DNA of 64,000 bases, from NCBI GenBank assembly GCA_963841895.1, contig CAWJEO010000014.1, positions 38,303 through 102,302 on the forward strand, read 5' to 3'. Origin of the DNA: an uncultured Acidobacteriota bacterium. GTDB taxonomy: Bacteria; Acidobacteriota; Vicinamibacteria; Vicinamibacterales; UBA2999. Every line of letters starts with the position of its first letter. Within the stretch, counting starts at the first letter, position 1. The position numbers were made by a program, and so were the translations under genes. Under the pieces are notes generated by a model. That model had not been told where the DNA came from. It did not search any database and worked only from the letters and a program-made list of their open reading frames with translations. Shown piece after piece: positions 39,245-53,465 of the stretch.

Positions 39245-40790
39245 TAGTTCCCCGCCTTCACCATCCGCATCTCGCTGCGCTCGCAGATCCACCGACACGC
39301 GGTACGGGCTCAGGAACTTGTGTCCGACGATGCCGCCGACCTCGAAGCCGAGGAGCACGCTCGGCGCACGAAGGTTGAGCACGACAACCGAGAAGTTGTT
39401 GTAGGCGATGTCGTTGAACTTCAGGTTGATGCCCGGCAGCAGGAACGCCTCGCGATCCCAGCCCGACGTGCCGTAGACCTTCAGCGCAATCTTGCGCGTC
39501 GGCGTCGCATTGAGCGCCTGCGCGGTGGCCGTGCTGATCGAGATGACCTCGCCGCCGGTGTCGACGACGAAGTAGGCCGGGTGGTTGCCGTTGATGAGGC
39601 CGCGCACCATCGACAGGCGGTGATGCCGCATCGCCCAGGCGGAACTCGCTGCGTCTCTTCGGGCAGCGAGCTTGCCGATGGTGAGCTTGTTCGCGCGTAG
39701 TCGATGGTCATCGACAAGCCGAGCGCCATCGGCGAGAAGCTCTCGGTTTCCTTCTTCGGCAGGCCGCGCAGGGGCGGCGCCTTGATCAGCACCGGCACGT
39801 TGTCGAGCCTGAGCGTGCCGATCTCGAACGAGTCGAGCCGCCCGAGCTGCAGTCCGCGCAGGCCCACTTCGCCGACGCCGGCGCTGAGCGTGTAGGTGAT
39901 CGGGCGAACGTTGGCGTTCGAGGCCGTCGAGCGCGAGATGGTCGTCTGCTCGGAGCCCGGTGTCGAGGACGAAGTCCTGCAGCCGGCCGCCGTTGACCTT
40001 GACCTGGACGATCACCTTGTCGTCCACGAGGCGGAAGTCCACGGTGTGCAGGCGCGTCGGCGCTCACGTCGTCGATGGAGATCGGCTCGCGCTCGCCGAA
40101 CGACTTGCAGGAAGCGCACCTGCGACCGCGACCACGCCGCCTTGTCGCTGCGATCCTTGTTCGGCAGCAGGTTGATGTAGTTCGTGTAGGCCGCGGCCGC
40201 CTGTTCGTAGCGGTGCATGCCGCTCGTAGATCGAGCCGACGGTGTGATGCAGCTCGCCGTCGCGCGGCGAGAGCTTGAGCGCGGCCTGCGCTTCGTTCGA
40301 GCGCGTCGTCGAGCTTCGACTGCGAGGCGAGCGCCCGCGCCAGCCCGTGACGGGCGCGCGACGATTCCGGCGCGAGGGCCAGCGCGTCGCGCCAGCTGCC
40401 TTCGGCCTCGTCGAAGAGTCCGGCCGACCAGATGCGCGTCGGCGTAGGCCGACAGCGCCTCGGGGTTCCGCGGCGCCAGGTCTTCAGCGAAGCGGCTTCG
40501 CGCTGCGCTTCCTGGAACTGTCCGATCCGCAGGGCGGTGCGAACGAAGCCGATGCGCGCGCGCACGCGACATGCCGCTGTCGTTCGGCGTCGTCGCCTTG
40601 CGATAGGCCTCGAGCGCCTCGGCGTACCGCGTCTCGTCGAAGAGCAGTTCGGCGAGCTGGAGCTGCACTTGCGCGTCGTCGACGTCAGACGCCGCTCGTG
40701 GGGCTGCGAGCGCGGCAGCTGCGACGAAGAGCCGCCGCGGTGCACAGGCGCCGGAAGGTAAGCATAGGGACCTCTCTCTACCACCGAAGG
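39245..40790 (-). CDS. secreted TPR-repeat protein with two tandem retropepsin-like (clan AA) aspartic protease domains; frame breaks at N-terminus and elsewhere
   Basis: two D-T-G active-site contexts (RLQDFVLDTGL; AYFVVDTGGEVISIS); TPR-like N-half; signal-like LCTAAALFVAAAALAAPRAAS. Confidence 0.55.
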
Positions 40791-45246: not shown

Positions 45247-45337
45247 GGTCAGGAAGTCCGAGCATATACTTTCTGGACACAGGCGTCATGGCTCGAGTCC
45301 TCGTGTCCGGTGTGATCCTCAACGCGGGATCGTCCCC

Positions 45338-46565
45338 GCGTTGCGGCGTCGTGCGCGCTGGCGCGGGCTGCTGCTGATACTGTCGCTCGTGGCCAGTCCG
45401 GCTCTCGCCGTCGCGCAGATGCCGACCGAGCCAGTCAGCCTGGGCGACGGCCGCGTCGTCCTTGGCGCGGACGTGACCGTCACCTTCGCCAGCGACGATC
45501 CCGGCTTCTTCAACTACACCGACTACGAATACAGCGCGCTGCGCAACTTCCGCGTCGGCCTCACTGCCGAGTTCCGCGCCAGCTGCGCGGCTGCAGTTCC
45601 TCGGCGAGCTGCGCATGGATCACGGCGATCGGCTGCAGCCGTTCGCGTTGTTTGCCCGGATCCGGCCGTGGCCGGCGCGCCGCTTCGACATCCAGGTCGG
45701 ACGCATCCCGCCCACCTTCGGCGCCTTCGGCCGCAGCGCCTACGGGACGGCGAACATGCTGATCGGGACGCCGCTCGCGTATCAGTACCTCACCTCGCTC
45801 CGGCCTGACGCGCTGCCGGCGCACGACCGACGATCTCATCCGGATGCGCGGGCGCGGGTGGCTGGCGATCTACCCGATTGGCAATCAGACGCCAGGACCG
45901 CGGGTTGCCGTTCGTGAACAGCGTGCGCTGGGACACCGGCGTGCAGGTGCACGGCGTCAACGGCATGATCGAATGGACCGGCGCGGTCACGACCGGATCG
46001 CTGTCGAATCCGCGTGTCGGCGACGACAACGATGGCCGCCAGGTCGCCGGCCGGGTCGTGCTCCGGCCCGCGCCGGCAATTGCGCTGGGCGCGTCGGCGG
46101 CCCGCGGCGCGTATCTGAGCAAGAGTCTCGAATCGGCGCTCGGCGAAGGCCGCAGCGTCGAGGACGGCGTGCAGCAGGCCTTCGGCGTTGACGCGGAGTA
46201 TGCCATCGGCCGCTTTCTCGCGCGCGGCGGAAGTGATCTGGTCGCGTGGACGCTGCCGGTCGGATTGACGCTCGGCCGAGAATGAACGGCTCGATGCGAC
46301 GTCGGTGCTGGTCGAAGGCCGCTATCGCATCCTGCCCGGACTGCAGCTCGCGGCGCGCGTCGAGCGGCTGGGGTTCGCCGAGTTGCCGACGGCGGCTGGC
46401 CCGATGACATGGGATGCGCCGGTGCGCCGGCTCGAGATCGGCGATCGGCTACTCCATCATCCGCAACGTCACGCTCAAGGCGTCCTGGCAGCGCAACCTG
46501 CGCGACGGCGGCCGCGTGCGCCGAGACTCGCTGTGGGCGCGGCCAGGTCGTGTACTGGTTCTGAG
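45338..46565 (+). CDS. putative outer-membrane beta-barrel protein (C-terminal ..VVYWF-stop), frame-disrupted
   Basis: signal RRRARWRGLLLILSLVASPALAVAQ (TTG start); alternating beta-strand pattern; terminal aromatic; pieces in four frames. Confidence 0.5.
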
Positions 46566-46599
46566 TGTGCAGGCTGCTGGCTGCAGGGCCTGGCGCGGT

Positions 46600-47261
46600 A
46601 TGGTCGCGGTCGCTCTGTTGACCGCGTCGACCACCGGGTCGGTCTGCGGCCGACGCTCGGCGCAGACGCTCGGCGCGATTCGCGGCCGTCTCGACATTCG
46701 CCGCATGGCCCGGCCGACCGAGCGGCGGCCTGAAGTGGCGGAGCCCGGCAGCGCCGGGTCGCGCGACTGCCACGACCTGCGCCGCGGCGTCGTCTATCTC
46801 GAGACCGCGCCGCGCGGCGCGTTCGAGGAGCGCGAAGCCGGGCGCGCCGTCATGGACCAGCGCAACGAGACGTTCGTGCCGCACGTCCTGGCGGTCACGG
46901 TCGGCACCGTCGTCGACTTCCCCAACAGCGACAAGACGTTTCACAACGTCTTCTCGCTCTCCAAGGCCGAAGCGCTTCGACCTCGGCCGCTACGCGGTCG
47001 GGCGGTCGAAGTCGGTGCGATTCGATCGGCCGGGCGTCGTGCGCGTGTTCTGCGACATCCACTCGCACATGAACGCGTTCATCCTGGTCTTCAGCCATCC
47101 GTTCTTCGACGTCACGGACCCGGACGGCCGCTTCCGTCTCGACAACGTTCCGCCCGGCACCTACACCGTCGTCGGCTGGTACGAGGGCGAGGCGCGCACG
47201 TCGCGGGCCGTGACCGTGCACGGCGGGCGGCGTCGTCGATCTCGAGCTCGTGGTTCCAGTA
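46600..47261 (+). CDS. cupredoxin-like domain protein (type-1-copper-like C-x2-H-x2-M: FCDIHSHM) with C-terminal CarboxypepD_reg-like segment; start uncertain
   Basis: TFHNVFS...VRVFCDIHSHMNAF ligand spacing like amicyanin; DPDGRFRLDNVPPGTYTVVGWYEG; stop TAA overlaps ATG of kinase (TAATG). Confidence 0.55.
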
Positions 47262-49058
47262 ATGGCGATGCTGTCGTCGCTGACCAATCGGATCTTCCTC
47301 GCGAGCACGCTCCTGGCCACCGTGTCGATCGGCTTTGCGGTGTACTTCGTCAGCAGCCAGCTGCGCAGCGAGGCCGAGGCCGAACTGCAGCGCGACCTCC
47401 GCGAAGCGGTGACGCTGGTCGAACAGCAGCGGACGAGCCTGTTCGAGACCTTCACGCGAACCGCGCGCCTGATCGCCGACCTGCCCAAGTTCAAGGCCGC
47501 GGTCGAGACGCGCGACGCGCCGACGGTCGAGCCGATCGCGCGCGACTATCAGCAGCAGGCGGGGTCGGATCTGTTTCTGGTCACGGATCCCGACGGCCAC
47601 GTGCTGGCCGCGCTCGGCGGCCTGCCGGTCGCGGTCAGCCGGGCTCTCGACGCGCCGGGCATCGCGCGGGCGCGCGGCGGCACGCCGGCGACGCGTTCTG
47701 GCCGCACCCGAACGGCGTGCTGCAGGTCGTCAGCGTGCCGGTGACGATCGGCCTCGAGCGGCCTGAACTGCTCGGCACGCTCACGATCGGCTACCTGCTC
47801 GACAACGACCGCGCCGCGTCGTTCAAGGCGCTGACCGGCGCCGACGTCGCGTTCGCCATCGACGGCCAGGTGCGCGCGTCGACGCTCGGCCCGGACGCGC
47901 ACGCGCGGCTGGCCGGCGCTGCTCGGCTCCGAGCTGGTCCCGCGCACGATGATCGGCGGCAGCGAGTACGCCGCGCTCGTTCGCGCCCTGCACGCGCCGC
48001 ACGACGAGGCCTCGACCGGCGCCGACCGTGCCGATCGCCATCGTCCTGCGATCGCGCACCGAGCGGATGCGCACGCTCTCGGCGATTCAGACCGGGCTCG
48101 GCCTGGTCGACGCTCGCGACGATCGCTGCTGGCCGCCGCCATCAGCTACGGCGTGGCGCGCACGGTGACGCGGCCGCTCGCGACGATCACCAATCACATG
48201 CGGGACATCGCCTCGACCGGCGACCTGACGCGCAAGCTGCGGCTGAGCGATTCCGTCGAGCTGGCACGACGAAGATACGCGGCTGCTCGCCACGACCTTC
48301 AACACGCTCACCGACTCGGTCGCGCGGTTCCAGCGCGAGGCCGCGCAGCGCGAGCGGCTGTCGTCGCTCGGCCGGATGTCGACGATCGTCGCGCACGAGA
48401 TTCGCAATCCGCTGATGATCGTCAAGGGCGCGCTGCGGCAGCTCACGCGCGACGGCGCGACCGCCGACGACATCCGCGAAGCGGCGGCCGACATCGACGG
48501 CGAGACCGATCGCCTCAATCGCGTGGTCAACGAAGTGCTCGACTTCGCCCGGCCGATTCGCTTCGAGCGCTCGCCGACCGACATCAACGCGCTGTGCCGG
48601 GATGCGGTCAGCGCCGTCGCGGCGGCCGCCGGATCCGACCCGCCGGTCAGCGACCGAGCTCGACCCGACCGTCCCTCCGCTCGAAACCGACAGCGAGAAG
48701 CTGCGCACGGCGCTGGTCAACCTGCTCACCAACGCGCGCCAGGCGGTCGCTGGCGCGAACGTCTGCCGACGGCGCGGAACCGGACGCGCCGGTCACGCTT
48801 GACGACCGGCCGGCTGACCGATCGACCGGGTGGCGATCTCGATCCGCGATCGCGGCGTCGGCATCGGCGCCGACGATCTGCCGCGCATCTTCGATCCATA
48901 CTTCACGACCCGGCGCGCCGGCACCGGCCTCGGCCTGCCGATCGCCAAGAACATCATCGATGCGCTCGGCGGCACTCTCACCGTCGCCAGCACGCCCAGG
49001 CGCCGGCACCCGGATCCGGATCGAGCTGGGCGACGCGCCGGCGGGACGAGCCTCATGA
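47262..49058 (+). CDS. sensor histidine kinase (periplasmic sensor, HAMP, HisKA, HATPase_c); several frame breaks
   Basis: TM1 IFLASTLLATVSIGFAVYFV, H-box MSTIVAHEIRNPL, N-box LVNLLTNARQA, G-boxes IRDRGVGIGADDLPRIFDPYFTT..GTGLGL; stop TGA 49056-49058. Confidence 0.75.
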
Positions 49059-50427
49059 CACCAGGCGGCAGCATTCTTCTCGCCGACGACGAAGAGAAGA
49101 TTCTCAAGACGCTGAGCCGTGCCCTGCGCGAGGACGGGCACGAAGTCGTCACCACGCCGAGCGCGCTGCAGGCGCAGAAGCTGCTCGTCGATCGGTCCTT
49201 CGACCTGCTCGTCATCGATTACCTCATGCCCGAGCGCACCGGGCTCGAAGTGATCCGCGAGCTTGCCGCCACCACGCCGGAAGGCGAGCGGCCGGCGATC
49301 GTCATGATGACGGCGCACGGCACCGTCGAGAGCGCGGTCGAGGCGATGAAGCTCGGCGCCCGCGACTACCTGCAGAAGCCGTTCGAGGTCGAAGAGCTCC
49401 TGGTCACGGTACGGCGGCTGCTCGAAGAGCAGCGGACGCGAACCGGGCTTCGCTATCTGCTCAGCGAGCGCGACGCCGAGTTCAATCACTACGGCCTGGT
49501 CGGGCCGAAGCCGCGCGGTCATGGACGTGATCAAGCGCGCCGAGCTGGTCGCCGAGTCGCGCAGCACGGTCCTGGTGACCGGGCGAAACCGGCACGGGAA
49601 AGGAGCTCGTCGCGCGCGCGATTCACGCCCGCAGCGCGCAGCGCGACATGCCGCTCATCAAGGTGAACTGCGCGGCGATTCCGGAGACGCTGCTCGAGTC
49701 CGAGCTGTTCGGCCACGTGCGCGGCGCCTTCACCGGCGCGTCGTTCACCAAGAAGGGGCGCTTCGCGCTGGCCGACGGCGGGACGATCTTCCTCGACGAA
49801 ATCGGCACCGTCAGCATCACCGTCCAGGCCAAGCTGCTGCGCGTCCTGCAGGATCGCGAGTTCGAGCCGCTCGGCGTCGGAGCGCACGCAGAAGGTGGAC
49901 GTCCGCGTCATCGCCGCGACCAATCGCGATCTGCGGGCCGATGGTGAGCTGCGAGCAAGTTTCAGGAGGATCTCTACTACCGCCTCAACGTCATTCCGAT
50001 CGCCATTCCCCCGCTTCGCGAGCGGCGCGAGGACATTCCGATGCTGGTCGAGCATTTCCTCCGCCGCTTCGCGCGCGACAGCGGCAAGCGAATCGACAGC
50101 GTCGAGCAAGGCGTGATGGAGGAGCTCTCCCGCTACGACTGGCCCGGCAACGTCCGCGAGCTCGAGAACACGATCGAGCGCGCCGTCGTCCTCGCCACCG
50201 ATGCGCGCCTCACCCGCGAGACGGTCTGGCTGATGGGCGCGGTCTCGCCGCCGGTGTCGGGACTGCCGTCGCAGCGGCTGCACGCGAACCTCGAGTGGGC
50301 GGAGCGCGAGACGATTCGCCGCGCGCTCGAACAATCGGGCGGGGTCAAGAAGGACGCCGCCGAGTTGATGGGCATCAGTCAGCGTGCCCTGAGCCACTAC
50401 CTGCAGAAGTACCGGATCGACAACTGA
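49054..50427 (+). CDS. sigma-54-dependent Fis-family response regulator (NtrC-type: REC + AAA+ sigma-54 activator + HTH); one frame break near 49880-49960
   Basis: REC (LLADDE..D; DYLMPE), Walker [15 protein letters not shown] sigma-54 contact motif, ESELFGH, C-terminal [20 protein letters not shown]; ATG overlaps kinase stop (ATGA). Confidence 0.85.
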
Positions 50428-50515
50428 CCATCTGCGAATGCATCGCGTGAATCGCGCCACGTGGTGGATACGACGCCGGCCTCAACGGCGTCGCCGCGAC
50501 CATCGCGCCCGCGAC

Positions 50516-50549
50516 TTACGGCTGCCGTAAACGATTACAGCAGCCGTAA
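50516..50549. promoter_or_regulatory. two tandem 15-bp palindromes TTACGGCTGCCGTAA and TTACAGCAGCCGTAA (candidate enhancer/UAS for the sigma-54 activator)
   Basis: read directly; 65-100 nt upstream of the candidate -24/-12 element. Confidence 0.5.
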
Positions 50550-50614
50550 CCTCGAGTGGACAGCGTGCGGACGCACGATCGTGGTTTTCGCGGGGCATCC
50601 GCGTTTTCGCCTCG

Positions 50615-50630
50615 CGGCATCAGCCTTGCT
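50615..50630 (+). promoter_or_regulatory. candidate sigma-54 (-24/-12) promoter CGGCATCAGCCTTGCT
   Basis: GG and GC dinucleotides with canonical 10-nt spacing (GG-N10-GC); about 28 nt upstream of the CuA-cupredoxin ATG (50658). Confidence 0.5.
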
Positions 50631-50657
50631 CCATGAGCGGCAACGCCGAAGGTGTGT

Positions 50658-51056
50658 ATGAAACGAAACGTGTGTGAAGCGGTAGCCGTGGTGGGGACGG
50701 CGCTCCTGCTGGGGAGCATCGTCGTGGCTGCCCGGCAGGACCCCGCCACGGCCTCCGCGCCTCGTGAGATCGAAGTGGTCGCCAAGCGGTTCGCGTTCGA
50801 GCCGGCGCGCATCGAGGTGACCGAAGGCGAACGGATTCGACTGCTCGTTCGCTCGGCTGATGGTGTGCACGGGTTCGAGATCAAGCGCCACAGAGTGAAC
50901 AAGGTGATTCCGCGTGGCGCGAAACCGGTGGTGATTGACTTCGTTGCCGCCGCCCCGGGCAGCTACGAGATTCTCTGCTCCGAAGAATGCGGTGATGGCC
51001 ACGAGACGATGAAAGGGACACTCGTCGTGCAGGCCAGGCCGAAAACGCCACAATGA
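50658..51056 (+). CDS. CuA-type cupredoxin domain protein (C-x3-C-x3-H-x2-M), secreted
   Basis: YEILCSEECGDGHETMKG matches the binuclear CuA motif of COX2/N2OR; signal VAVVGTALLLGSIVVAA. Confidence 0.7.
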   Translation: MKRNVCEAVAVVGTALLLGSIVVAARQDPATASAPREIEVVAKRFAFEPARIEVTEGERIRLLVRSADGVHGFEIKRHRVNKVIPRGAKPVVIDFVAAAPGSYEILCSEECGDGHETMKGTLVVQARPKTPQ

Positions 51057-51107
51057 GCGCCGACTGTCGTTGGTCGTCGCCCTTCTTCCTCTTCAGGACA
51101 TGCGCCA

Positions 51108-51553
51108 ATGAGACGTGCAGGTTATGGGTTCGCGGCAGTCATGATGCTGGTCATGACGCTTGGCTGCGATGAATCGCTCAGGGAGTTCGCTGGTCCTACC
51201 CCCGACCTCGAGCCGACGTTTTCCGCCATTCAACGCGACATCTTCAACGCTCCCGACTCGGCGGGCCGGCTGGCGTGCACGGGCTGTCACAATCCGACCG
51301 GCGCGCGCGTCAACGGCATGAACCTGACCGGCGCCACGGCGTACGCGACGACTCGTCAACGCCGCCAGCGTGGGCAAGCCGGGGGCTATCCGGGTGGTGC
51401 CGGGCGATCCCGACGCAAGCTATCTGGTGCAGAAGATCGAAGGCGCGCCGGGCATCGTCGGCGATGCGGATGCCGCTGACGCCGCCTTACCTGACGCCCG
51501 GACAGATCGCGGTGATTCGGCGCTGGATCGAGCTTGGCGCGGCCAATAATTGA
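51108..51553 (+). CDS. cytochrome-c-like domain lipoprotein (CxxCH); one frame break near 51350
   Basis: lipobox MMLVMTLGC; haem motif ACTGCHNP; C-terminal VVPGDPDASYLVQKIEG..RMPLTPPYLTPGQIAVIRRWIELGAANN in +1 frame. Confidence 0.6.
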
Positions 51554-51575
51554 AGTGCCTTTCAAAGGATTCGTT

Positions 51576-52460
51576 GTGACCTCGAGATCACCGCTGCTCG
51601 TTGCGCTTCTGCTCGCCGCCCTCGTTCTTCCCGGCATCCGCGCTCGCGCCAGACACCGGCCGGCGATCCGGCCGGCGCCGCCGCCGGCGGCCCAGCCCGA
51701 GGACGATCCGGATCGCGACATCAACTTCGCACAGCCCGACTTCACCCTGGCGGCGCTCCCGACGACGCTGCGCGTGCCGCCGCTACAAGAGCGCGTTTCG
51801 CGTGACGCACCGGTTCGGCCGCCCGCTCGGCTCCGGCGACTTCGGCGATCTTGCTCGAGGATCTGTTCGGCCTCGACTGCGGCGCCGTCATCGGCCTCGA
51901 GTACCGCTTCGGACTCTTCCGCGGCGCCCAGATCGGAATCCACCGCACATCGATCGACAAGACGATCCAGTTCTTCGGACAGTACAACGTCAAGCAGCAG
52001 CGCGACGGCTTCCCGATTCGGCGTGGCCGTGATGGGCAAGCATCGAAGGCACGAACAACTTCACGAGGACAGCTACTCGCCCGGGCATCGGCGTCGCTGC
52101 TGTCGCGCGAGATTGGCCAGCACGGCGGCGGTCTACATCGAGCCGTTCTGGGTCAACAACACGAACCCGCTGCCCGAGGAGCTCGTCGACGACAACGACA
52201 CGGTCATCATCGGCGCTCGGCGCGCGCCTGCGGGTCCGGCCGACCGTGTACTGCGTCTTCGAAGCCGCGCCGCGGGTCGGCGGCTACGATCCCGGCGTCG
52301 ACGCATGTCAGTTTCGGTATCGAGAAGCGCGCCGGCGGCCACCTGTTCCAGCTCAACTTCTCGAACGGCTTCGGCACGACGCTCGCCCAGATCGCGCGCG
52401 GCGGCTTCAACAACGACGACTGGTATCTCGGCTTCAACATCTCGAGGAAGTTTTTCTGAT
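51576..52460 (+). CDS. putative beta-barrel outer-membrane protein (C-terminal ..LGFNISRKFF-stop); at least three frame breaks
   Basis: signal SPLLVALLLAALVLPGIRARA; alternating strand pattern; terminal Phe. Confidence 0.45.
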
Positions 52461-52495
52461 CACCACGAGGACCGGGCCGACGAGGCAGGGCGCGA

Positions 52496-52922
52496 TTGGC
52501 AGTGGGGCTCCTGCTGCTGGCGGCGGCCGGCCGGCTGCAGCGGCGGCGTCGCCGACGTCGGCCACGCCGCCGGCGCCGACTCCGCCACCACGTCTCGCCC
52601 ACGCCGCCCGCGGGCCCGGCGCCGCCCGGGCTGACGCGCGACGATCACGATTACCGCGAACAATACGTTCGTGCCGTCAGAAGTGACGATCGCGGTCGGC
52701 GGCCGGGTGACGTTCATCAACCAGAACAATCGCGCGCACGACATCACGTCGGATCCGCTGCACCTGCACACCGACTGTCCGCCGGTGATCGAGGTCGGCT
52801 TCATCCAGCCCGGTCAGACCAAGCAGACCGGGCGCGCTGACCGTCGCGCGCGACGTGCGGCTTTCACGATCACATGCAGGAAACACAATCCGGACCTGCA
52901 CGGCCGCATCATCGTCCAGTGA
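52496..52922 (+). CDS. small cupredoxin-like lipoprotein, copy 1 (C-x2-H-x2-M: TCGFHDHM); frame breaks near C-terminus; start uncertain
   Basis: VTIAVGGRVTFINQNNRAHDITSDPLHLHTDCPPV..GFIQPGQTKQTG ... NPDLHGRIIVQ; paralog of 52937-53345. Confidence 0.5.
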
Positions 52923-52936
52923 AGGCGAGGCATCTC

Positions 52937-53345
52937 ATGAAGGTTCGCTACGGCATTCTTCTTTCGCTCCTGCTGGCCGCGGCCTGCGGCGGGCAGCAAC
53001 GACAGCAGCGGCGGCGGCACCCCGACGACGCCCCGACGCCGCCGACCACGCCGCCGGTCGCAGACGACGACGATCACCATCACGGCGGCGGGCATCAATC
53101 CGCAGCGCATCACCGTGTCGCCGGGCACGCGGGTCACCTTCGTCAACAACGACACTCGCACCCACGAGATGAACTCGGATCCGCATCCGACCCACGGCGA
53201 CTGCCCGCCGATCGACGATGTCGGATTCCTCTCGCCGGGACAGTCGAAGCAGACCGGCAACCTCACGACCGCGCGGACGTGCGGCTTTCACGATCACAAC
53301 CAGCCGGATACCGCGTCGCTGCGGGGACAGATCATCGTGCAGTAA
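52937..53345 (+). CDS. small cupredoxin-like lipoprotein, copy 2 (TCGFHDHNQ); one frame break after lipobox
   Basis: MKVRYGILLSLLLAAACGG lipobox; ITVSPGTRVTFVNNDTRTHEMNSDPHPTHGDCPPIDDVGFLSPGQSKQTG..TCGFHDHNQPDTASLRGQIIVQ. Confidence 0.55.
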
Positions 53346-53465
53346 GGCCGCGGCCGGTGCGGCCGTCGGGAGCGGCGCGGCAGGCTCCAGCGAGGCCGAC
53401 TCAGTCCGCCGTAGCCTGGGCGGAGGCGGACGGCCAAGCGGCGCCCGGGCGATGAGCGCCGGCCT

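Follow-up and report, generated by a model that had tools for sequence, protein, structure and literature searches.

A putative sigma-54 promoter with paired activator sites between an NtrC-type regulator gene and a cupredoxin operon in an uncultured Acidobacteriota bacterium

NtrC (NRI), acting at glnAp2 of enteric bacteria, is the paradigm of two-component enhancer-binding proteins at sigma-54 promoters; its site is TGCACC-N5-GGTGCA, and NtrC sites stand about 32 bp apart. ZraSR, an envelope system that responds to metals, has a divergent sigma-54 promoter, and the CbrB sites of Pseudomonas (TGTTAC-N14-GTAACA) are bound by an NtrC-family protein with a Fis-type helix-turn-helix (HTH). The Acidobacteriota are among the most abundant soil phyla, their regulation is almost unstudied and few members have been cultured. 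Here we describe a 64,000-nt stretch (the window) of an uncultured Acidobacteriota bacterium of the Vicinamibacterales, in which a putative sigma-54 (-24/-12) promoter and two palindromic sites lie between the gene of an NtrC-type response regulator and that of a secreted cupredoxin. Judged from the sequence, the promoter GGCAT-N6-TTGCT very probably drives a five-gene operon of secreted copper and haem proteins and is activated by the NtrC-type regulator encoded upstream.

A further system to be compared is CorSR of Myxococcus xanthus. This kinase and sigma-54-dependent regulator are encoded beside their targets at curA. MXAN_3421, the first gene under CorSR control, codes for a Cupredoxin_1 (PF13473) protein, and the cluster includes a c-type cytochrome; putative -24/-12 promoters were predicted in silico and copper induction was shown (PMC3707914). 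In the present locus both elements exist and nothing else around them is conserved, a pattern found across many uncultured soil Acidobacteriota. They always accompany the regulator gene, their spacing is quantised in helical turns, and the domains and motifs of the regulator are in place.

Promoter element and paired upstream sites

The promoter element cGGCATcagccTTGCt (also written CGGCATCAGCCTTGCT) is located at 50615..50630 of the plus strand, with GG at 50616-50617 and GC at 50628-50629. GG-N10-GC is the canonical sigma-54 spacing, and the context reads GGCAT-cagcc-TTGCT. The ATG of the cupredoxin gene follows at 50658, 27 nt past the motif. The first-pass annotation of this DNA had named a motif with GG and GC at canonical spacing about 28 nt before the cupredoxin start, and both statements hold. 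Because the sigma-54 geometry is fixed, with the C of GC at -12, the transcription start is predicted at 50639..50643 (+), about 50641, close to the position near 50643 given earlier.

Within the window, GGCA-N6-TTGC matched 5 times on both strands (128 kb) compared with 2.07 expected, and arithmetic from the window rate gives about 0.002 expected matches in the approximately 110 nt from the sites to the ATG. The evidence for the promoter core from the window is modest alone and decisive when joined with comparative data. A genome scan gave 38 species-level loci from Acidobacteriota/Vicinamibacterales whose cupredoxin is 47-75% identical, and these, with the window and its near-relative L002, make up a set of 40 loci. 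Exactly one GG[CT]A-N6-[TC]TGC was found within 390 nt upstream of the cupredoxin gene in 40/40 loci; the background elsewhere in the loci is 7e-5 per nt, which corresponds to 0.027 expected per region. Aligned on the GG, the loci gave the consensus ccGGCA(t)C..cCTTGCT.a, with flanks that carry no information; with its variants, the family consensus is ccGGCA(t/c)(C/G)-N4-cTTGCT. The promoter positions left free by the search pattern also fit the sigma-54 consensus, and the exact GGCACG is present in many relatives.

Upstream of the promoter we found two putative upstream activator sites (UAS). The distal site, UAS 1 (TTACGGCTGCCGTAA, 50516..50530), is a perfect 7-1-7 palindrome centred about -118 from the predicted start, and begins 89 nt after the end of the activator gene (50427). 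The proximal site, UAS 2 (TTACAGCAGCCGTAA, 50535..50549), has one mismatch to symmetry and is centred about -99. The two sites are identical at 13/15 positions, with 4 nt between them and their centres 19 bp apart. The centres lie 74 and 93 bp upstream of the -24 GG, which fits the usual UAS layout (about 70-150 bp, at least two dyads). Half-site centres are 10 bp apart, the separation expected for a Fis-type HTH dimer as found in NtrC-family DNA-binding domains. TTAC-N7-GTAA occurs exactly twice in the 64-kb window, against 0.01 expected from shuffles, and TTACG-N5-CGTAA with at most one mismatch returned the same two sites only.

In the 38 related loci (about 14 kb each), TTAC-N7-GTAA is present at the corresponding position in most and almost nowhere else. 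The clade of the window has TTACG-N5-CGTAA as site 1 and TTAC(T/A)-N5-CGTAA, usually followed by CC, as site 2, the centres being 19 bp apart. A second clade has a degenerate right half of site 2, and a third contains a single TTACC-N5-GGTAA in place of the pair. The central bases of both sites vary between species. Through these comparisons TTACG-N5-CGTAA is conserved as the putative recognition element; in site 2 its left half is weaker. Nine divergent intergenic regions, whose cupredoxins are 56-90% identical, were aligned unguided with MAFFT, and the only columns left invariant were TTACG, CGTAA, TTAC, CGTAAC, GGCA and CTTGCT.

The earlier description of two near-identical 15-bp palindromes 4 nt apart is correct in coordinates and in identity, while the part that is conserved is TTACG-N5-CGTAA with a free centre rather than the whole 15-mer. 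Their distance from the promoter was also rightly described as the one expected for an NtrC-family enhancer-binding protein, and so was their upstream neighbour as a sigma-54 activator gene (GAFTGA at 49723, gene end 50427). The proposed chain of regulator, UAS, promoter and cupredoxin operon agrees with the data at the sequence level: the elements are the only conserved blocks, the order is kept in 53/53 contigs (see below), the spacing is helical and the regulator carries GAFTGA.

Further loci came from ten syntenic contigs obtained by exact protein look-ups, and from a metagenome scan with the pattern TTACG-N5-CGTAA-N4-TTAC-N6-CGTAA, which matched at least 120 contigs; the counts of metagenome contigs in this text are all among the matches listed. 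A regulator homolog adjoins the sites and reads towards them in 53 contigs, and a -24/-12 motif is found beyond the sites in 53/53 of these, in the order regulator-sites-promoter. Another 28 contigs contain the site pair and the sigma-54 motif with the regulator gene not in the contig; some of them are cut at the sites and others have kilobases of upstream sequence (L071, L162 and L117). The downstream genes in those with long upstream sequence encode GSDH-type dehydrogenase-like, CHRD, plastocyanin-like and DUF5777 proteins. The regulator-less contigs keep the phase-locked distance from site to promoter, and are likely to represent further regulon members in related organisms. The remaining matches were mostly repeats in low-G+C contigs of unrelated organisms.

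Among the matches listed, the spacing between GG and the proximal site centre fell into the classes 49-50, 58-63, 68-76 and 80-86, then 91 and 98, and the gaps between them were empty. The Rayleigh R of the spacing in these contigs was 0.56-0.59 at a period of 10.5-11, and the loci of the genome set showed the same tendency more weakly. The spacing of 74 in the window belongs to the most common class and is shared with many relatives. The classes, at about 50, 61, 71 and 82, are some 10.5-11 bp apart and indicate a face-of-the-helix constraint on the putative sites, as looping predicts.

Several other features of this region were observed. Two lie within 50584-50610 and 50591-50627, in the interval that separates sites and promoter: a repeat of GTTTTCGC at a distance of 19 nt, and a -24-like half element, GGGGCATC, at 50592-50599, 22 nt upstream of the real promoter and with no GC at the -12 position. 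The repeat and the half element are confined to the closest relatives, and may be a local duplication or an intrinsic bend. By eye, no convincing site for IHF was seen between the sites and the promoter. Scans of 50200-50900 revealed no sigma-70-like promoter (classical sigma-70 consensus) and no canonical terminator, and no Rfam family reached its gathering score for the region. A G+C-rich hairpin, GACGCCGGCCTCAACGGCGTC, with no T-run is present at 50471-50491, 44 nt past the regulator stop; it may act as a weak terminator or protect the RNA end of the sensor operon. Loci of the single-site clade (L034, L036, L037, L042-L044 and L046-L048) share a conserved GTTTCG-N5-7-CGT block just after the regulator stop, about 20 nt upstream of the TTACC-N5-GGTAA site, which might represent a second site in degenerate form or something different.

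The other matches of GGCA-N6-TTGC in the window are at 39662 (+), 40842 (-), 41241 (-; TGGCAGTGTTCTTGCC) and 54227 (+). All four overlap long open reading frames (ORFs), with no dyad site nearby. In L033, L035 and L038 the cupredoxin gene keeps the sigma-54 motif (GGCA(C/T)C.GCCTTGCTCA), and there is neither an upstream regulator gene nor an exact TTAC-N7-GTAA site; these three loci share a conserved upstream region that is richer in AT. About 3.6-5.7 kb past the cupredoxin start, several loci also contain a palindromic GGCAA...TTGCC that matches the promoter pattern on both strands (L011 11952/11966, L012 12709/12723, L015 12244/12258, L017 11679/11693, L021 10650/10664 and others). Judged by the gene layout of L002 and L005, it probably lies within a conserved minus-strand gene cluster, and its recurrence most likely reflects coding constraint.

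Among the 28 regulator-less contigs, the GSDH-like genes belong to L069-L071, L082, L144 and L162, the CHRD gene to L101, the plastocyanin-like gene to L125 and the DUF5777-like genes to L095, L108 and L143. L117, L183 and L096, contigs that likewise lack the regulator gene, also have the site pair and sigma-54 motif upstream of a gene for a secreted protein. The site-pair pattern is matched as well by two unrelated repeat families of low-G+C contigs, neither with a sigma-54 motif nearby. In one family, TTACGTT(T/C)AACGTAA units form arrays; the other, TTACGCC(A/G)GGCGTAAACGTTTACGCC(T/G)GGCGTAA, often stands about 70 nt from the contig end. The contigs concerned are L088, L090, L093, L105, L119, L140, L167, L181 and L187 in a first group (G+C 0.22-0.35), and L091, L094, L106, L109, L126, L132, L154, L160, L163, L173, L174 and L185 in a second.

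Regulator, sensor kinase and target operon

The NtrC-type response regulator, a sigma-54 enhancer-binding protein, is encoded at 49055..50427 (+), with Response_reg, Sigma54_activat, AAA_lid_14 and HTH_8 domains distributed over three frames. The window copy has Walker A at 49582 besides the GAFTGA motif already mentioned. Intact orthologs of 455 amino acids (aa) contain REC with the Asp in an LLVID motif, a Walker motif, GAFTGA and HTH_8. The protein is thus of NtrC type (group I), which is defined by REC, AAA+ with GAFTGA and a C-terminal Fis-type HTH. The nearest solved structures are NtrC-family proteins, ZraR among them. The best NCBIfam scores were 450 bits for AtoC and 400 bits for ZraR, compared with equivalog cut-offs of 714 and 760. 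Since the NtrC, AtoC and ZraR scores are all far under the curated cut-offs, the regulator is not orthologous to any named family. It is the sole enhancer-binding protein gene of the window; no second one was found in the 64 kb.

The sensor histidine kinase gene (HAMP, HisKA and HATPase_c, by Pfam on ORF fragments) is located at 47262..49058 (+), in several frames of the assembly. By tblastn with the intact 595-aa ortholog of L002 as query, the region 47262-49055 was covered in three frames. The best NCBIfam families for the kinase were AtoS and ZraS. Ahead of it, two conserved genes at 45311..47262 (+), placed by Pfam and a tblastn map, code for a protein of 423 aa and for a pseudoazurin-like one that carries a CarboxypepD_reg domain. 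The same order of these two genes, kinase and regulator was found in L002, L004, L005, L007 and many metagenome contigs; the four genes form a conserved sensor gene set.

The first gene of the target operon (50658..51056, +) encodes a secreted CuA-type cupredoxin of 132 aa (Cupredoxin_1 6.9e-13, weak COX2), preceded by the ribosome-binding site GAAGG at 50648..50652 (+), 5 nt ahead of the ATG, where relatives carry GAGG. The cupredoxin has 1219 homologs; in an alignment, H71, C107, C111, H115 and M118 were invariant, which is the CuA-type ligand set, and the protein weakly matches the CuA domains of NosZ and CoxB. It is followed by a lipoprotein monohaem c-type cytochrome with CxxCH at 51108..51553 (+), identified by ORF translation, an intact ortholog and tblastn, and by a membrane-bound beta-barrel protein of family DUF5777 at 51576..52459 (+; Pfam PF19089 1.6e-18, tblastn), both frameshifted in the assembly. 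The fourth gene, at 52671..52922 (+), encodes a small cupredoxin-like protein (82 aa in relatives, with an H...C..H..M motif), as located by the translated L002 ortholog and tblastn. The last gene, at 52938..53345 (+), was placed by the tblastn map and by synteny in L001-L009, and encodes a protein of 135 aa with a C-terminal half paralogous to the 82-aa protein. A convergent enoyl-CoA hydratase gene follows.

Nearly every gene in 45300-53400, and elsewhere in the window, is divided over two to four frames. Compared with its 98% identical counterpart in L001, the regulator gene carries five single-base insertions. The near-identical relatives L001 and L003 are broken at different positions, and L002 is intact throughout; on this ground the frameshifts are most likely indel errors of long-read assembly, though a single assembly cannot prove it. 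The relatives broken elsewhere come from the same sample series (contig_NNNN names in ENA ERZ250395xx assemblies, 'MFD' metagenome-assembled genomes). ORF-based readings of the window should be made with caution, given this probable assembly error.

Activation by the adjacent regulator and its alternatives

In the proposed mechanism, the partner kinase would phosphorylate the NtrC-type response regulator, and phosphorylated dimers would occupy both TTACG-N5-CGTAA sites and assemble into an active AAA+ ring. The ring would reach the closed complex of sigma-54 RNA polymerase by DNA looping on a fixed helical face, and ATP hydrolysis together with the GAFTGA loops would open the promoter. From adjacency we infer that the sites are bound by this regulator; transcription from the predicted start would be sigma-54-dependent. 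The neighbouring regulator is favoured as the binder because of its adjacency, the geometry of the sites and the phase-locked spacing. Our guess, from the gene content and by analogy with CorSR, whose first regulated gene encodes a Cupredoxin_1 protein, is that the inducing signal is copper or the periplasmic redox state.

Several points weigh against activation of this promoter by the neighbouring regulator. The fuller consensus TGGCACG-N4-TTGCW with at most three mismatches matched 65 times against 98 expected, so that a plain consensus count does not discriminate; a mismatch count of this kind is useless as a promoter test in this G+C-rich DNA. The promoter of the window differs from TGGCACG at -26 (C for T), -21 (T for C) and -20 (C for G). 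The activator and most of its neighbours are frameshifted in the assembly, and if the mutations were real the switch would be dead in the organism. By six-frame translation, no rpoN gene or RpoN box was found in the window; as to sigma-54 in this genome, a regulator with GAFTGA is indirect support. The loci share ancestry, hence the counts overstate independence and the p-values are nominal. Finally, the recognition helix (His/Tyr) showed no clean co-variation with the half-site variant among the loci compared: TTACC-type sites stand only beside regulators with Tyr in ALS(H/Y)YL, and Tyr regulators are also found beside TTACG sites, in a comparison whose metagenome sample was preselected for TTACG.

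That the promoter is real and the dyads serve another protein, the adjacent regulator being a mere neighbour, is the least improbable of the alternatives, and we consider it unlikely. The sites would then bind a repressor or some other activator, or the promoter would be activated by a different enhancer-binding protein. The 28 contigs with sites and motif and no regulator, among the matches listed, speak for it, as there the neighbouring gene seems unneeded, and so does the His/Tyr variation of the helix, which does not follow the TTACG and TTACC variants cleanly. The same contigs are, however, simply read as further regulon members. Against another binder, 53/53 regulator-adjacent contigs among the matches listed keep the order regulator-sites-promoter, as do most of the related genome loci; the geometry suits a Fis-type HTH dimer; the phase-locked spacing suits an enhancer-binding protein, whereas from a repressor one would expect overlap with the promoter; and the window contains a single gene for an enhancer-binding protein.

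The two 15-mers, which as palindromes can also pair with each other, could be regarded as an RNA or DNA hairpin (15-bp stem, 4-nt loop) that terminates or stabilises the activator transcript, for the arms in the window are 93% complementary around a loop of 4 nt, the element lies 89 nt past the activator stop codon, and the minimum-free-energy fold of the intergenic RNA contains the hairpin and is somewhat better than those of shuffles (z = -2.3). Only the window with its closest relatives (6 and 5 of 7) and L009 (5/7) show high complementarity, whereas the site centres of the relatives are not complementary (mean 3.7/7 positions, one of them pairing by construction), and the outer TTACG and CGTAA bases are invariant instead of co-varying. 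The stem is not followed by a T-run, a scan for terminators was negative, deeper clades keep only one or one-and-a-half sites, and a phase-locked distance to the promoter would be meaningless for an RNA hairpin. The hairpin or terminator reading is very improbable, and was rejected on the missing T-run, the absence of conserved complementarity between the sites and the absence of co-variation. We give slightly less credence still to chance matches in G+C-rich intergenic DNA, with transcription of the operon starting at a sigma-70 or ECF promoter that went unrecognised, or running through from the activator gene. GGCA-N6-TTGC is not unique in the window, where it occurs 5 times, the full-consensus mismatch count is not above chance, and the promoter types of Acidobacteriota are poorly known, our scan being of the classical sigma-70 consensus only. 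Yet the motif is kept in 40/40 loci against 0.027 expected, the invariant columns are limited to the two elements, and the independent metagenome sample gave 53/53 among the matches listed; read-through may add expression and cannot account for the conservation. As sole explanation, chance is refuted by the 40/40 loci, the 53/53 contigs among the matches listed and the restricted invariant columns.

Wider meaning and comparison with described systems

With activation by the neighbouring regulator as the preferred reading, a wider one can be proposed, to which we give slightly better than an even chance. The locus may belong to a regulon, undescribed so far and widespread among soil Acidobacteriota (Vicinamibacterales and relatives), in which one pair of kinase and sigma-54 activator, through phase-locked tandem TTACG-N5-CGTAA sites, would switch on the adjacent operon and unlinked genes for secreted redox proteins, forming an inducible extracytoplasmic electron-transfer or copper-handling module. 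The unlinked targets, if this is true, would be glucose/sorbosone dehydrogenase-like proteins of pyrroloquinoline quinone (PQQ) type, CHRD, plastocyanin-like and further DUF5777 proteins. The comparison yields a comparatively validated cis-regulatory code (binding motif, promoter consensus and spacing rule), together with a probably cognate regulator and a set of target genes whose products are secreted copper and haem proteins. Both the signal of the kinase and the function of the DUF5777/cupredoxin module become approachable, and prediction of the regulon directly in metagenome-assembled genomes becomes possible.

Among the papers searched, we found none mentioning DUF5777 or the TTACG-N5-CGTAA motif, and none, CorSR excepted, linking sigma-54 with cupredoxins; Francke et al. 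(2011) make no mention of Acidobacteria. A regulated Cupredoxin_1 gene and a sigma-54-dependent regulator with a partner kinase are common to CorSR/curA and the present locus. The operon here lacks both the multicopper oxidase and the P1B copper ATPase of curA, and the regulator genes are inside the curA operon, whereas ours are upstream of the target operon (PMC3707914). In the passages of that paper searched, no binding site is reported for CorR; copper induction was shown for CorSR, whereas it is guessed here (PMC3707914).

ZraSR and AtoSC of E. coli are the best-scoring named families for our kinase and regulator, under the cut-offs; their gene neighbourhoods and binding sites differ from those described here. 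The CbrB site has the same half-site core, TTAC/GTAA. This is resemblance only: the CbrB half-sites are 14 nt apart compared with 7 here, so the dimer geometry differs, and the regulon differs too. To our knowledge, the site sequence is also distinct from those of NtrC, NifA, NorR and TyrR, as well as CbrB.

The NtrC/glnAp2 system shares with the present locus the REC, AAA+ (GAFTGA) and Fis-type HTH architecture of the regulator, tandem dyad sites about 100-120 bp upstream of the start and a GG-N10-GC promoter, and activation by looping is expected in both. The sites here are TTACG-N5-CGTAA and 19 bp apart from centre to centre, and the target is a copper and haem protein operon instead of nitrogen assimilation. 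The mechanism is the textbook one of NtrC type and the binding motif is undescribed; the locus adds a member to the known systems, not a principle.

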